NCBI RefSeq assembly: GCF_044324785.1
Contig: NZ_CP172127.1
Direction: 5' to 3' (one strand)
DNA: 64,000 nucleotides
DNA from: Escherichia coli
Lineage (GTDB): Bacteria; Pseudomonadota; Gammaproteobacteria; Enterobacterales; Enterobacteriaceae
How positions within the stretch are numbered: the first letter of the stretch is position 1; the number at the start of each line of letters is the position of its first letter. The notes below the pieces were generated by a model, which was not told the DNA's origin, ran no database searches, and saw only the letters and a program-made list of their open reading frames with translations. A program made the position numbers and the translations under genes. Positions 34,411-39,654 of this stretch are shown one piece after another.

Positions 34411-36066
34411 ATGACTAATCTTCCCCACTGGTGGCAAAACGGCGTTATCTACCAGATTTATCCAAAGAGTTTTCAGGACACCACGGGTAGCGGCACCGGC
34501 GATTTACGTGGCGTTATCCAGCGCCTGGACTATCTGCATAAACTGGGCGTTGATGCCATCTGGCTAACCCCCTTTTATGTCTCTCCCCAGGTCGATAACG
34601 GTTACGACGTAGCGAACTATACGGCGATTGATCCCACCTACGGCACACTGGACGATTTTGACGAACTGGTGACACAGGCAAAATCTCGCGGGATTCGTAT
34701 CATTCTCGATATGGTGTTTAACCATACCTCTACCCAACATGCCTGGTTTCGTGAGGCGCTGAACAAAGCAAGCCCTTACCGCCAGTTTTATATCTGGCGC
34801 GATGGAGAACCAGAAACACCACCGAACAACTGGCGTTCAAAATTTGGCGGTAGCGCGTGGCGCTGGCATGCGGAAAGCGAACAGTACTATTTGCATCTCT
34901 TTGCACCAGAACAGGCGGATCTCAACTGGGAGAATCCAGCGGTACGCGCAGAGCTGAAAAAAGTCTGTGAGTTCTGGGCCGATCGTGGGGTCGACGGGTT
35001 GCGCCTGGATGTGGTGAATCTGATCTCCAAAGACCCGCGTTTCCCTGATGACCTGGATGGCGACGGGCGTCGCTTCTACACCGACGGGCCACGAGCACAC
35101 GAGTTTTTGCACGAGATGAACCGCGATGTGTTTACGCCGCGCGGGTTAATGACCGTAGGTGAAATGTCCTCCACCAGCCTTGAGCATTGCCAGCGATATG
35201 CGGCACTGACAGGCAGTGAATTGTCGATGACCTTTAATTTTCATCACCTGAAAGTCGATTATCCCGGTGGTGAAAAATGGACGCTGGCTAAACCTGACTT
35301 TGTGGCGTTGAAAACATTGTTCCGCCACTGGCAACAAGGAATGCACAACGTGGCATGGAATGCCTTGTTCTGGTGTAACCACGATCAGCCGCGCATTGTT
35401 TCTCGCTTTGGTGATGAAGGTGAATACCGCGTGCCTGCGGCAAAAATGCTGGCGATGGTGCTGCATGGCATGCAGGGAACGCCATATATCTACCAGGGCG
35501 AAGAGATTGGCATGACTAACCCACATTTCACGCGCATTACTGACTATCGCGACGTGGAGAGCCTCAATATGTTTGCCGAGCTGCGCAACGATGGGCGTGA
35601 TGCCGACGAGTTATTGGCAATCCTCGCCAGTAAATCCCGTGACAACAGTCGCACACCCATGCAATGGAGCAACGGCGATAATGCCGGGTTTACGGCTGGC
35701 GAACCGTGGATTGGCCTGGGCGATAACTATCAACAAATCAACGTAGAAGCAGCGCTGGCCGATGAGTCCTCGGTGTTTTACACCTACCAAAAGTTAATCG
35801 CACTGCGTAAGCAAGAAGCCGTCCTGACATGGGGCGATTACCAGGATCTGCTGCCAAACAGCCCTGTATTGTGGTGCTATCGCCGTGAGTGGAAGGGGCA
35901 AACCTTGCTGGTCATTGCCAACCTTAGCCGTGAGACCCAACCCTGGCAGCCAGGGAAAATGCTCGGCAACTGGCAGCTTGTGATGCATAACTACGAAGAA
36001 GCCTCACCACAACCCTGTGCCATGACTTTACGGCCTTTTGAGGCTGTCTGGTGGTTACAGAAGTAA
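34411..36066 (+). CDS. treC: Trehalose-6-phosphate hydrolase
   Basis: ORF 34264..36066; start MTNLPHWWQNGVIYQIYP (551 aa); GH13 family. Confidence 0.93.
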   Translation: MTNLPHWWQNGVIYQIYPKSFQDTTGSGTGDLRGVIQRLDYLHKLGVDAIWLTPFYVSPQVDNGYDVANYTAIDPTYGTLDDFDELVTQAKSRGIRIILDMVFNHTSTQHAWFREALNKASPYRQFYIWRDGEPETPPNNWRSKFGGSAWRWHAESEQYYLHLFAPEQADLNWENPAVRAELKKVCEFWADRGVDGLRLDVVNLISKDPRFPDDLDGDGRRFYTDGPRAHEFLHEMNRDVFTPRGLMTVGEMSSTSLEHCQRYAALTGSELSMTFNFHHLKVDYPGGEKWTLAKPDFVALKTLFRHWQQGMHNVAWNALFWCNHDQPRIVSRFGDEGEYRVPAAKMLAMVLHGMQGTPYIYQGEEIGMTNPHFTRITDYRDVESLNMFAELRNDGRDADELLAILASKSRDNSRTPMQWSNGDNAGFTAGEPWIGLGDNYQQINVEAALADESSVFYTYQKLIALRKQEAVLTWGDYQDLLPNSPVLWCYRREWKGQTLLVIANLSRETQPWQPGKMLGNWQLVMHNYEEASPQPCAMTLRPFEAVWWLQK

Positions 36067-36078
36067 ATCTTCCCTAAG

Positions 36079-36108
36079 CCCCGGTAATGCCGATCATTCC
36101 GGGGTTTT
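36079..36108 (+). terminator. Rho-independent terminator after treC
   Basis: CCCCGG...CCGGGG hairpin followed by TTTTGT. Confidence 0.65.
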
Positions 36109-36459
36109 GTCTGTCAGTATGTTGTTTTTGTTGATTTTTCAACCAGCAAATTCATTAAAAAATTTACATAACGCTGTAGCGCCCGTCATCCGTACGCTCT
36201 GCTTTTTACTTTGAGCTACATCAAAAAAAGTTAAAACATCCTTGATGCAAAGCACTATATATAGACTTTAAAATGCGTCCCAACCCAATATGTTGTATTA
36301 ATCGACTATAATTGCTACTACAGCTCCCCACGAAAAAGGTGCGGCGTTGTGGATAAGCGGATGGCGATTGCGGAAAGCACCGGAAAACGAAACAAAAAAA
36401 CCGGAAAACGCCTTTCCCAATTTCTGTGGATAACCTGTTCTTAAAAATATGGAGCGATC

Positions 36460-38598
36460 ATGACACCGCATGTGATGAAACGAGACGGCTGCAAAGTGCC
36501 GTTTAAATCAGAGCGCATCAAAGAAGCGATTCTGCGTGCAGCTAAAGCAGCGGAAGTCGATGATGCCGATTATTGCGCCACTGTTGCTGCGGTTGTCAGC
36601 GAGCAGATGCAGGGCCGCAACCAGGTGGATATCAATGAGATCCAGACCGCAGTTGAAAACCAGCTGATGTCGGGTCCATACAAACAACTGGCTCGTGCTT
36701 ACATCGAGTACCGTCACGATCGCGACATTGAACGTGAAAAACGCGGTCGCCTGAACCAGGAAATCCGTGGTCTGGTCGAGCAGACCAACTCCTCGTTGCT
36801 CAACGAAAACGCCAACAAAGACAGCAAGGTGATTCCAACCCAGCGCGACCTGCTGGCCGGGATCGTGGCTAAACACTATGCACGCCAGCACCTGCTGCCG
36901 CGTGACGTGGTGCAGGCACATGAGCGTGGCGATATTCACTATCACGATCTCGATTACTCACCGTTCTTCCCGATGTTCAATTGCATGTTGATCGACCTGA
37001 AAGGCATGCTGACCCAGGGCTTTAAGATGGGGAACGCCGAGATTGAACCGCCGAAGTCGATCTCTACGGCAACCGCTGTAACTGCGCAGATTATTGCTCA
37101 GGTCGCCAGCCATATTTATGGCGGCACCACCATTAACCGTATCGATGAAGTGCTGGCACCGTTTGTCACCGCCAGCTACAACAAACATCGCAAGACCGCA
37201 GAAGAGTGGAACATCCCGGACGCCGAAGGCTACGCTAACTCTCGAACCATCAAAGAGTGCTACGATGCCTTCCAGTCGCTGGAGTACGAAGTAAACACCC
37301 TGCACACCGCCAACGGTCAAACACCGTTTGTGACCTTTGGTTTTGGTCTGGGCACCAGCTGGGAGTCGCGCCTGATTCAGGAATCTATCCTGCGTAACCG
37401 TATCGCAGGCCTCGGTAAAAACCGTAAAACTGCGGTGTTCCCGAAACTGGTGTTTGCGATTCGCGATGGCCTAAACCATAAAAAAGGCGATCCGAACTAC
37501 GACATCAAACAGCTGGCGCTGGAGTGCGCAAGCAAGCGCATGTATCCGGATATCCTGAACTACGATCAGGTAGTGAAAGTCACCGGTTCGTTTAAAACCC
37601 CGATGGGCTGCCGCAGCTTCCTCGGCGTGTGGGAAAATGAAAACGGCGAGCAGATCCACGATGGTCGTAACAACCTCGGCGTGATCAGCCTGAACCTGCC
37701 GCGTATTGCTCTGGAGGCAAAAGGCGATGAAGCCACCTTCTGGAAGCTGCTGGATGAACGTCTGGTGCTGGCACGTAAGGCGCTGATGACCCGTATCGCC
37801 CGTCTGGAAGGCGTGAAGGCACGCGTAGCTCCTATCCTCTATATGGAAGGTGCTTGTGGCGTGCGTCTGAATGCTGACGATGATGTTTCTGAAATCTTCA
37901 AAAACGGTCGTGCGTCTATTTCGCTGGGCTACATCGGCATCCACGAAACCATTAACGCGCTGTTCGGCGGCGAGCATGTTTACGACAACGAGCAGCTTCG
38001 CGCGAAAGGTATCGCGATTGTTGAACGTCTGCGTCAGGCGGTGGATCAGTGGAAAGAAGAAACGGGTTATGGTTTCAGTCTCTACAGCACGCCAAGTGAA
38101 AACCTGTGCGACCGCTTCTGCCGTCTCGATACCGCTGAGTTTGGCGTGGTGCCGGGCGTGACCGATAAAGGTTACTACACCAACAGTTTCCACCTTGATG
38201 TGGAGAAAAAGGTGAACCCGTATGACAAGATCGACTTTGAAGCGCCTTACCCGCCGCTGGCGAACGGTGGTTTCATTTGCTACGGCGAGTATCCAAACAT
38301 TCAGCACAACCTGAAGGCGCTGGAAGATGTCTGGGATTACAGCTATCAGCATGTACCGTATTACGGCACCAATACGCCGATCGATGAGTGCTACGAGTGT
38401 GGCTTTACTGGCGAGTTCGAGTGCACCAGCAAAGGCTTCACTTGCCCGAAATGTGGTAACCATGACGCCTCCCGTGTGTCGGTGACTCGCCGCGTGTGCG
38501 GATATTTAGGTAGCCCGGATGCACGTCCGTTTAACGCCGGTAAGCAGGAAGAAGTTAAGCGCCGCGTTAAACATTTGGGAAATGGGCAGATCGGTTAA
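36460..38598 (+). CDS. nrdD: Anaerobic ribonucleoside-triphosphate reductase
   Basis: 712 aa; C-terminal glycyl-radical region and Zn-ribbon CxxC...CxxC. Confidence 0.96.
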   Translation: MTPHVMKRDGCKVPFKSERIKEAILRAAKAAEVDDADYCATVAAVVSEQMQGRNQVDINEIQTAVENQLMSGPYKQLARAYIEYRHDRDIEREKRGRLNQEIRGLVEQTNSSLLNENANKDSKVIPTQRDLLAGIVAKHYARQHLLPRDVVQAHERGDIHYHDLDYSPFFPMFNCMLIDLKGMLTQGFKMGNAEIEPPKSISTATAVTAQIIAQVASHIYGGTTINRIDEVLAPFVTASYNKHRKTAEEWNIPDAEGYANSRTIKECYDAFQSLEYEVNTLHTANGQTPFVTFGFGLGTSWESRLIQESILRNRIAGLGKNRKTAVFPKLVFAIRDGLNHKKGDPNYDIKQLALECASKRMYPDILNYDQVVKVTGSFKTPMGCRSFLGVWENENGEQIHDGRNNLGVISLNLPRIALEAKGDEATFWKLLDERLVLARKALMTRIARLEGVKARVAPILYMEGACGVRLNADDDVSEIFKNGRASISLGYIGIHETINALFGGEHVYDNEQLRAKGIAIVERLRQAVDQWKEETGYGFSLYSTPSENLCDRFCRLDTAEFGVVPGVTDKGYYTNSFHLDVEKKVNPYDKIDFEAPYPPLANGGFICYGEYPNIQHNLKALEDVWDYSYQHVPYYGTNTPIDECYECGFTGEFECTSKGFTCPKCGNHDASRVSVTRRVCGYLGSPDARPFNAGKQEEVKRRVKHLGNGQIG

Positions 38599-38619
38599 TC
38601 TTCACTCTGCGTTAAGCAA

Positions 38620-38750
<131 letters not shown>

Positions 38751-38755
38751 AAATA

Positions 38756-39220
38756 ATGAATTATCATCAGTACTATCCTGTCGACATCGTCAACGGCCCC
38801 GGCACTCGCTGTACCCTGTTTGTCTCCGGGTGTGTTCATGAATGCCCCGGTTGCTATAACAAAAGCACATGGCGGGTAAATTCTGGTCAGCCATTTACCA
38901 AAGCAATGGAAGACCAGATCATTAACGATCTGAATGACACTCGTATCAAACGCCAGGGGATTTCCCTCTCCGGCGGCGATCCGCTGCATCCGCAAAACGT
39001 GCCGGATATTCTGAAACTGGTACAACGCATCCGCGCCGAGTGTCCGGGTAAAGACATCTGGGTGTGGACAGGCTACAAGCTGGACGAGCTCAACGCCGCA
39101 CAAATGGAAGTGGTCGATCTCATCAACGTGCTGGTCGACGGTAAGTTTGTGCAGGATTTAAAAGACCCTTCCCTGATCTGGCGCGGCAGCAGCAATCAGG
39201 TGGTGCATCATTTGCGATGA
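38756..39220 (+). CDS. nrdG: Anaerobic RNR activating enzyme (radical SAM)
   Basis: ORF 38711..39220; start MNYHQYYPVD (154 aa); radical-SAM CxxxCxxC-type cluster. Confidence 0.92.
   Translation: MNYHQYYPVDIVNGPGTRCTLFVSGCVHECPGCYNKSTWRVNSGQPFTKAMEDQIINDLNDTRIKRQGISLSGGDPLHPQNVPDILKLVQRIRAECPGKDIWVWTGYKLDELNAAQMEVVDLINVLVDGKFVQDLKDPSLIWRGSSNQVVHHLR

Positions 39221-39264: not shown

Positions 39265-39654
<390 letters not shown>

Follow-up and report, generated by a model that had tools for sequence, protein, structure and literature searches.

The treC-nrdD spacer of Escherichia coli carries the FNR-activated promoter and the DnaA-box leader of the nrdDG operon

Organization of the treC-nrdD locus

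The window, i.e. the whole 64,000-nt stretch of E. coli DNA analysed here, contains the genes treR-treB-treC, a spacer and nrdD-nrdG in this annotated order. TreC belongs to the alpha-amylase family (Pfam). Its reading frame stops at 36066 and the ATG of nrdD lies at 36460, so that a spacer of 393 bp (36067-36459) separates the two genes; the ORF limits confirm the length and the gene assignment given in the first-pass annotation of this DNA. nrdD (36460-38598, + strand) encodes an anaerobic ribonucleoside-triphosphate reductase of 712 aa, identified by Pfam (NRDD, 8e-193; Gly_radical; ATP-cone) and by the RefSeq annotation of the identical locus. The second gene of the operon, nrdG (38756-39220, + strand), encodes the activating enzyme of 154 aa (Pfam Fer4_12, 6e-57; Radical_SAM; annotation). 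A Shine-Dalgarno sequence, GGAG (36451-36454, + strand), was read from the sequence 6 nt 5' of the nrdD ATG, with a conservation of 0.8-1.0 between genera.

Of 5426 complete E. coli genomes searched, 5425 contain the spacer, each in a single copy. In strain MG1655 it is likewise 393 bp long, with no annotation inside, and in strain AST215 it is 100% identical to that of the window. The window nevertheless represents a different strain from AST215. The nrdD-nrdG spacer (38599-38755 in the window, 7033-7217 in L001) differs by 28 bp between AST215 and the window. In AST215, moreover, nrdG and cybC are separated by a RelE/RelB toxin-antitoxin pair that is apparently missing from the window; here cybC (39265-39651) follows directly 3' of nrdG.

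The GC content of the spacer is 40.7%, compared to 50.5% for the window, which places it in the 8th percentile of all 393-bp windows. The AT-richness noted in the first-pass annotation is therefore real but moderate, not extreme. Within the spacer, a core region (36211-36300) has 31% GC and the 100 bp preceding it (36111-36210) have 37% GC. Small ORFs within the spacer were rejected as genes, all of them having non-canonical starts or lying in indel-rich sequence.

The spacer is the published promoter and leader of the E. coli nrdDG operon, which encodes the class III, anaerobic ribonucleotide reductase (RNR). It corresponds to the K-12 nrdDG promoter (Boston & Atlung 2003; Roca et al. 2008; PMC11317965) in locus and in its length of 393 bp, and the primers of the literature promoter probe flank it at 36038-36058 and 36481-36499. 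Its length can be divided into a terminator of about 45 bp, an upstream stretch of about 100 bp, an FNR/NrdR promoter of about 90 bp and a leader of about 178 nt as a landing platform for DnaA; the spacer is long because it accommodates NrdR boxes, DnaA boxes, neither of which the first-pass annotation mentioned, and the roughly 178-nt leader. Among the loci in which treC is the neighbour, its length varies from 372 to 494 bp with a median of about 392 bp.

At the 5' end of the spacer we found the intrinsic terminator of treC (36076-36108, + strand), a hairpin with a GC core (CCCCGG, 36079-36084; CCGGGG, 36099-36104) followed by UUUU. Its RNA fold has a predicted energy of -17.1 kcal/mol (z = -3.6), and none of 200 shuffled sequences was equally stable. 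The genus-weighted identity of this segment is only 0.22, a low value that is expected for a terminator. A simple promoter/terminator scan of the spacer recovered neither the real promoter nor this terminator, the latter because the loop limit of the scan was set to 8. The sole call of the scan was a minus-strand promoter-like match in the palindromic NrdR boxes described below, and shuffled sequences gave as many.

Phylogenetic footprint of the spacer

Species-representative genomes were scanned with a degenerate pattern of the NrdD N-terminus (KRDGCKVPF), which yielded 108 loci. At least 600 bp of upstream sequence was present in 85 of these, and 80 of the 85 showed the Enterobacteriaceae architecture. 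In 73 of the 80 Enterobacteriaceae loci, both FNR sites reached 10 bits or more at a distance of exactly 31 bp, and in 77 of the 80 both DnaA 9-mers were exact. The genus-weighted identity to the window was 0.93 for FNR site 1, 0.96 for the -10 hexamer, 0.80 and 0.87 for NrdR boxes 1 and 2 and 1.0 for the DnaA boxes. FNR site 2 reached 0.75; its TTG and ATCAA/GTCAA positions are fixed and the others vary.

Outside this family, the Erwiniaceae genera Pantoea and Tatumella have a short leader that lacks DnaA boxes, and of the two FNR sites they keep the upstream one alone, which agrees with the upstream site being the essential one. In Pragia, a single FNR site is accompanied by two NrdR boxes and by DnaA boxes within the leader.

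FNR sites of the nrdD promoter

We built a symmetric FNR position weight matrix (PWM) from 62 sites that coincide with ChIP-seq peaks (Myers et al. 2013, Table S6; PMC3688515), leaving out the nrdD site itself. The training sites score between 11.9 and 21.2 bits. In parallel, the spacer was searched for sequences that deviate from the consensus TTGAT-N4-ATCAA at no more than two positions.

The consensus search returned two matches, at 36211-36224 (one mismatch) and at 36242-36255 (two mismatches), and the same two sequences stood out in the PWM scan. The upstream match, TTGAGCTACATCAA, scored 17.8 bits and ranked first of all 14-mers in the 64-kb window; the downstream match, TTGATGCAAAGCAC, scored 10.7 bits and ranked ninth. 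When the spacer was shuffled 2000 times with its dinucleotide composition preserved, the probability of a best score of at least 17.8 bits was 0.0005, as was that of a second-best score of at least 10.7 bits. The anaerobic, FNR-dependent nrdDG promoter proposed in the first-pass annotation is borne out by these matches, which lie well above background.

Comparison with the mapped sites of the nrdD promoter showed that the two matches are exactly the published ones. The upstream match is FNR site 2, the high-affinity, essential site with a published centre at -64.5, and the downstream match is FNR site 1, a weaker auxiliary site with a published centre at -33.5 that overlaps the -35 region. A published K-12 FNR-binding 54-mer (PMC10425943) aligned to 36207-36260 with 52 of 54 identical positions. 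The two differences, at 36231 (C to T) and 36233 (C to A), fall into the 17-bp gap between the FNR sites, and this strain polymorphism probably has no effect. They are the only differences from the published K-12 elements, since the NrdR 57-mer (57/57) and the DnaA double box (22/22) described below are identical. The 14-mer of FNR site 2 is moreover listed, as its reverse complement TTGATGTAGCTCAA, at the nrdD ChIP-seq peak of Myers et al. (2013, Table S6; PMC3688515) with a PatSer score of 15.68, which is among the higher ones in that genome-wide table.

FNR site 2 begins with TTGAG, and a scan by eye for TTGAT therefore misses the stronger of the two sites. The first-pass annotation had also mentioned further TTGAT motifs besides the one it highlighted. 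One TTGAT (36242) and one ATCAA (36220) are indeed there; however, a total of three half-sites compared to 1.27 expected is no significant enrichment (P = 0.13).

Alignment of the homologous loci revealed that FNR site 1 of E. coli is, judged from its sequence, a degraded version of the family consensus. The family form TTGATGCAAATCAC, which scores 15.4 bits compared to 10.7 bits for TTGATGCAAAGCAC, is found in 64 of the 80 relatives. E. coli has a G at 36252 where these 64 relatives have a T, at a cost of about 5 bits. Four Escherichia lineages (e.g. L019, L035, L057, L092) carry TTAATGCAAAGCAC (TTAAT...) as FNR site 1, in which the key G is lost, and the same four have a slightly better upstream FNR site, TTGAGCTAAATCAA.

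The functional data on the two sites, like those on the start site and on regulatory effects, are taken from published work on K-12, whose sequence is nearly identical; sites, scores, spacing and conservation were computed here. In the passages of PMC10425943 that cite Roca et al. (2008), site 1 is placed at -33.5 and site 2 at -64.5, and gel shifts and mutagenesis are cited for site 2 being necessary and sufficient and site 1 being auxiliary. SEC-SAXS in the same paper (PMC10425943) showed [4Fe-4S] FNR dimers on both sites, bound to the same face of the DNA. Altogether, three independent papers put the FNR sites at -33.5 and -64.5, positions that correspond neither to canonical class II (-41.5) nor to class I (-61.5/-71.5) activation, and the authors of the SAXS study (PMC10425943) call the geometry of nrdDG activation 'a remaining mystery'.

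Conserved sequences upstream of the FNR sites

The footprint revealed two further conserved blocks between about -122 and -92 of the published start (36160-36190), namely AAAATTTACA at 36160-36170, which includes TTTACA (36165-36170), and GCGCCCGTCA at 36179-36188. The essential FNR site follows 30-50 bp downstream, and both blocks keep their register to it across genera. Their genus-weighted identity is 0.8-0.99, whereas neutral stretches of the leader reach 0.24-0.48. Of 81 loci, 69 have TTTACA in register; in Pragia, TTTACT is found at an unchanged distance of 46 bp from the FNR site.

One possible, though rather unlikely, explanation is that the AT-rich segment 36111-36210 serves mainly as a platform for nucleoid proteins (H-NS, Fis, IHF) which silence or shape the promoter, and that the blocks reflect this role. 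The low GC content of the segment (37%) would fit, PMC12176259 names H-NS together with Fnr as binders of the nrdDG promoter, citing a review, and an RNR review refers to work from 2013 that deals with H-NS and nrd genes. In the genome-wide data of Myers et al. (2013; PMC3688515), however, the nrdD FNR site overlaps no Fis, H-NS or IHF enrichment (Table S6) and carries no flag for a higher FNR occupancy in the hns/stpA mutant. In addition, a high GC content sets the most conserved block, GCGCCCGTCA, apart from H-NS sites.

We consider it unlikely, but worth stating, that AAAATTTACA and GCGCCCGTCA form the site of an undescribed nrdDG regulator or belong to an unmapped upstream promoter. Such a regulator or promoter would be a fourth input to the operon beside FNR, NrdR and DnaA. 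Comparison by eye with consensus sequences of IHF, Fis, ArcA, NarL, OmpR, PhoP, Fur, PurR and sigma-54 gave no convincing fit. An ArcA regulon paper makes no mention of nrdD, and papers on Fur report only an indirect effect on nrdD expression.

Promoter core, transcription start and NrdR boxes

Downstream of the FNR sites, a -10 hexamer TAAAAT (36269-36274, + strand) was read from the sequence. The best candidate for a -35 hexamer, TGCAAA (36246-36251), matches the consensus in three of six positions and lies inside FNR site 1. Back-calculation from the published centres of the FNR sites, -64.5 and -33.5, gave in both cases 36282 (+ strand) as the implied transcription start, seven bases after TAAAAT and thus in agreement with this hexamer. 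A genome-wide TSS data set contains no entry for nrdD. In a metabolic-engineering study, an 87-bp fragment reaching up to the start was used as the nrdDG promoter.

A second -10-like sequence, TATAAT, is located at 36307-36312 (+26 to +31) and is conserved as CTAnnAT (36306-36312). It could represent a second start, a sigma-70 pause element, a flank of NrdR box 2, or nothing. If the main or an extra start lay downstream of this TATAAT, the FNR sites would be centred at about -70 and -101, a class I-like arrangement, and NrdR box 2 would cover the -35 region. In favour of such a start, the published geometry of -33.5 and -64.5 is acknowledged as odd, and the E. coli hexamer TATAAT matches a -10 perfectly; its positions 1, 2, 5 and 6 (TAnnAT) are kept across genera with positions 3 and 4 varying, as expected of a -10. 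We nevertheless regard a downstream start as improbable: it disagrees with the three independent papers on the position of the FNR sites, the sequence 16-18 bp upstream of TATAAT contains no -35-like hexamer, it was not among the calls of the consensus promoter scan, and TAAAAT is as strongly conserved (0.96).

The core is framed by two NrdR boxes. Box 1, GCACTATATATAGACT (36252-36267), has three mismatches to ACACTATATATAGTGT, and box 2, ACCCAATATGTTGTAT (36283-36298), covers +2 to +17. Both lie within a published NrdR-binding 57-mer, which aligned to 36247-36303 with 57 of 57 identical positions and is bound with a Kd of about 160 nM in the presence of ATP and dATP (PMC12176259). The 15-bp linker between the boxes contains the -10, and the linker and the central AT match the description in PMC12176259. 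The promoter hence displays the arrangement that characterises NrdR-repressed RNR promoters, two 16-bp palindromic boxes placed over the RNA polymerase site. Box 1 shares 4 bp with the end of FNR site 1, an overlap also noted for Salmonella.

The leader and its DnaA boxes

With a start at 36282, the nrdD mRNA would have a leader (5' UTR) of about 178 nt (36282-36459, + strand). It is poorly conserved except for its DnaA boxes and the ribosome-binding region. The DnaA boxes lie on the - strand. An exact box, TTATCCACA, is located at 36348-36356 (+67 to +75), and a double box at 36425-36444 consists of a second exact TTATCCACA (36425-36433) and a weak box, TTAAGAACA (36436-36444), 2 bp apart. 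On the + strand the exact 9-mers, which begin at 36348 and 36425, read TGTGGATAA. The chance of finding two exact DnaA 9-mers in 393 bp is about 1e-5. The double box lies 7-26 nt upstream of the Shine-Dalgarno sequence.

Binding of DnaA to this region has been described. A published 22-mer of the DnaA ChIP-seq peak 'nrdD', tTTAAGAACAggTTATCCACAg, aligned to 36424-36445 with 22 of 22 identical positions, and the peak assigned to nrdD reached 62-fold over control (PMC11317965). Its coordinate, 4462739, is 79 bp upstream of the nrdD ATG of MG1655 (4462660), between the two boxes. The leader thus shows the closely paired, high-affinity DnaA 9-mer that is typical of DnaA-bound regulatory regions. 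Regulation of nrdD was inferred by the authors of the ChIP-seq study (PMC11317965), and the NrdD protein is increased in DARS2 deletion strains; this rise in the absence of DARS2 is compatible with repression by DnaA-ATP, but is no proof of it.

Riboswitches are present in the RNR operons of some other bacteria, and 178 nt is long for an E. coli leader, so that a cis-acting regulatory RNA (riboswitch or attenuator) in 36282-36459 might account for the long spacer. We judge this very improbable. Neither an Rfam family nor a stable conserved fold was found in the leader: Rfam searches gave no match to it even at E <= 1 and only three chance-level matches upstream of the promoter, and the predicted fold was no better than that of shuffled sequences (z = -0.77). 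No other part of the spacer is as poorly conserved as the leader outside its DnaA boxes and ribosome-binding region (0.24-0.48), where indels between genera are frequent, and the elements that are conserved are 9-mers for DNA-binding by a protein with ChIP support.

Between the exact DnaA boxes, the leader contains an exact 11-bp direct repeat, ACCGGAAAACG, at 36379-36389 and 36400-36410, the copies being 21 bp apart. It is specific to Escherichia, occurring also in E. albertii and being absent in other genera (conservation 0.24), and looks like a lineage-specific duplication without shown function.

The TTGAT motif at 36131-36144

The motif that the first-pass annotation had highlighted as FNR-like, TTGATTTTTCAACC, exists once in the spacer; its position is 36131-36144 and not about 36125-36140. 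As an FNR site it did not hold up. Its PWM score is -8.0 bits (rank 2771), a value reached by 4.3% of all 14-mers in the window, and it differs from the consensus by more than two mismatches. A gap of 4 bp separates its TTGA arm from its TCAA arm, compared to 6 bp in an FNR site. At the homologous place (±12 bp) in 80 relatives the median best score was -2.2 bits, with only two of the 80 reaching 8 bits, and it is thus not conserved as an FNR-like sequence. Located some 145 bp 5' of the published start, it is not included in the 87-bp promoter fragment.

That TTGATTTTTCAACC is nevertheless a genuine third FNR site activating from about -145 has a next to negligible probability: it offers one perfect TTGAT half-site in a short TTGA/TCAA inverted repeat, ChIP-seq resolution is too coarse to separate it from site 2 at 80 bp distance, and part of the T-rich block around it is kept in about half of the genera, but against this stand the background PWM score, the surplus of mismatches, the 4-bp gap between the arms, a right arm that is replaced in Salmonella, Enterobacter and others, and a literature that knows only two FNR sites and an 87-bp promoter fragment. 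A part of TTGATTTTTCAACC in FNR control is nearly refuted, and the two sites at 36211-36224 and 36242-36255 remain.

The motif lies partly in a T-rich block, TGTTTTTGTTGA (36123-36134), and its GTTGA is in register in 40 of 81 loci. The block is kept in Escherichia, Salmonella, many Citrobacter and Enterobacter, Lelliottia and Trabulsiella, and is not kept in Klebsiella, Raoultella, Kluyvera and Kosakonia. We rejected the idea that it is merely the 3' end of treC, its presence being independent of treC as neighbour.

Regulation of nrdDG and comparison with related promoters

Taken together, the spacer very probably contains an FNR-activated nrdDG promoter, in which the treC terminator and an AT-rich stretch devoid of FNR sites are followed by the pair of FNR sites at a distance of 31 bp, by a weak sigma-70 promoter between the NrdR boxes and by a leader with DnaA boxes. 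According to the work on K-12, dimeric [4Fe-4S] FNR occupies under anoxic conditions the strong upstream site (36211-36224), which is necessary and sufficient for activation. FNR on the weak site (36242-36255) boosts expression further, but only if the upstream site is occupied. In the presence of oxygen the cluster decays, FNR becomes monomeric and the promoter falls silent. NrdR, whose box 1 shares 4 bp with FNR site 1, represses the promoter when dATP is plentiful. DnaA, which the ChIP-seq data place on the leader boxes in vivo, would probably act by repression or as a roadblock and may couple the anaerobic dNTP supply to the replication initiator.

All important elements are already known in detail, as the nrdDG promoter has been experimentally dissected to textbook level. 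NrdR control of the K-12 operon has reportedly been covered by Torrents et al. in 2007 and by Rozman Grinberg et al. in 2025. The discovery value of our analysis is accordingly small; it mainly corrects which bases form the FNR sites. It may also serve as a calibration, since counting TTGAT by eye led to the wrong motif, whereas a PWM combined with phylogenetic footprinting led to exactly the published sites.

The nrdDG promoter resembles the class II FNR promoters of narG, nirB and dmsA, which respond to the same regulator through a 14-bp site of the TTGAT-N4-ATCAA type; both are activator-dependent because their -35 is weak. Of the 23 FNR-activated promoters whose start is known, 19 have the site at -41.5 ± 4 (Myers et al. 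2013; PMC3688515). In nrdDG, in contrast, the proximal site is 8 bp closer to the start, at -33.5 over the -35/spacer region, and the essential site is at -64.5. The tandem FNR promoters of yfiD, cydA and ompW (Myers et al. 2013, Table S6) also combine one strong and one weaker site. The spacing of their sites is 53 bp in yfiD, 52 bp in cydA and 45 bp in ompW, compared to 31 bp, on the same face of the DNA, in nrdD.

The E. coli nrdAB promoter (class Ia RNR) shares with nrdDG two NrdR boxes separated by a 15-bp linker as well as a ChIP-seq-bound double DnaA box. It differs in not being FNR-dependent, and the DnaA boxes of nrdD are situated in the transcribed leader, at +67 and +144. The cross-genus comparison yielded as by-products the near-invariant 31-bp spacing of the FNR sites and the leader DnaA boxes in Enterobacteriaceae, the degraded FNR site 1 of E. 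coli and the conserved upstream block.
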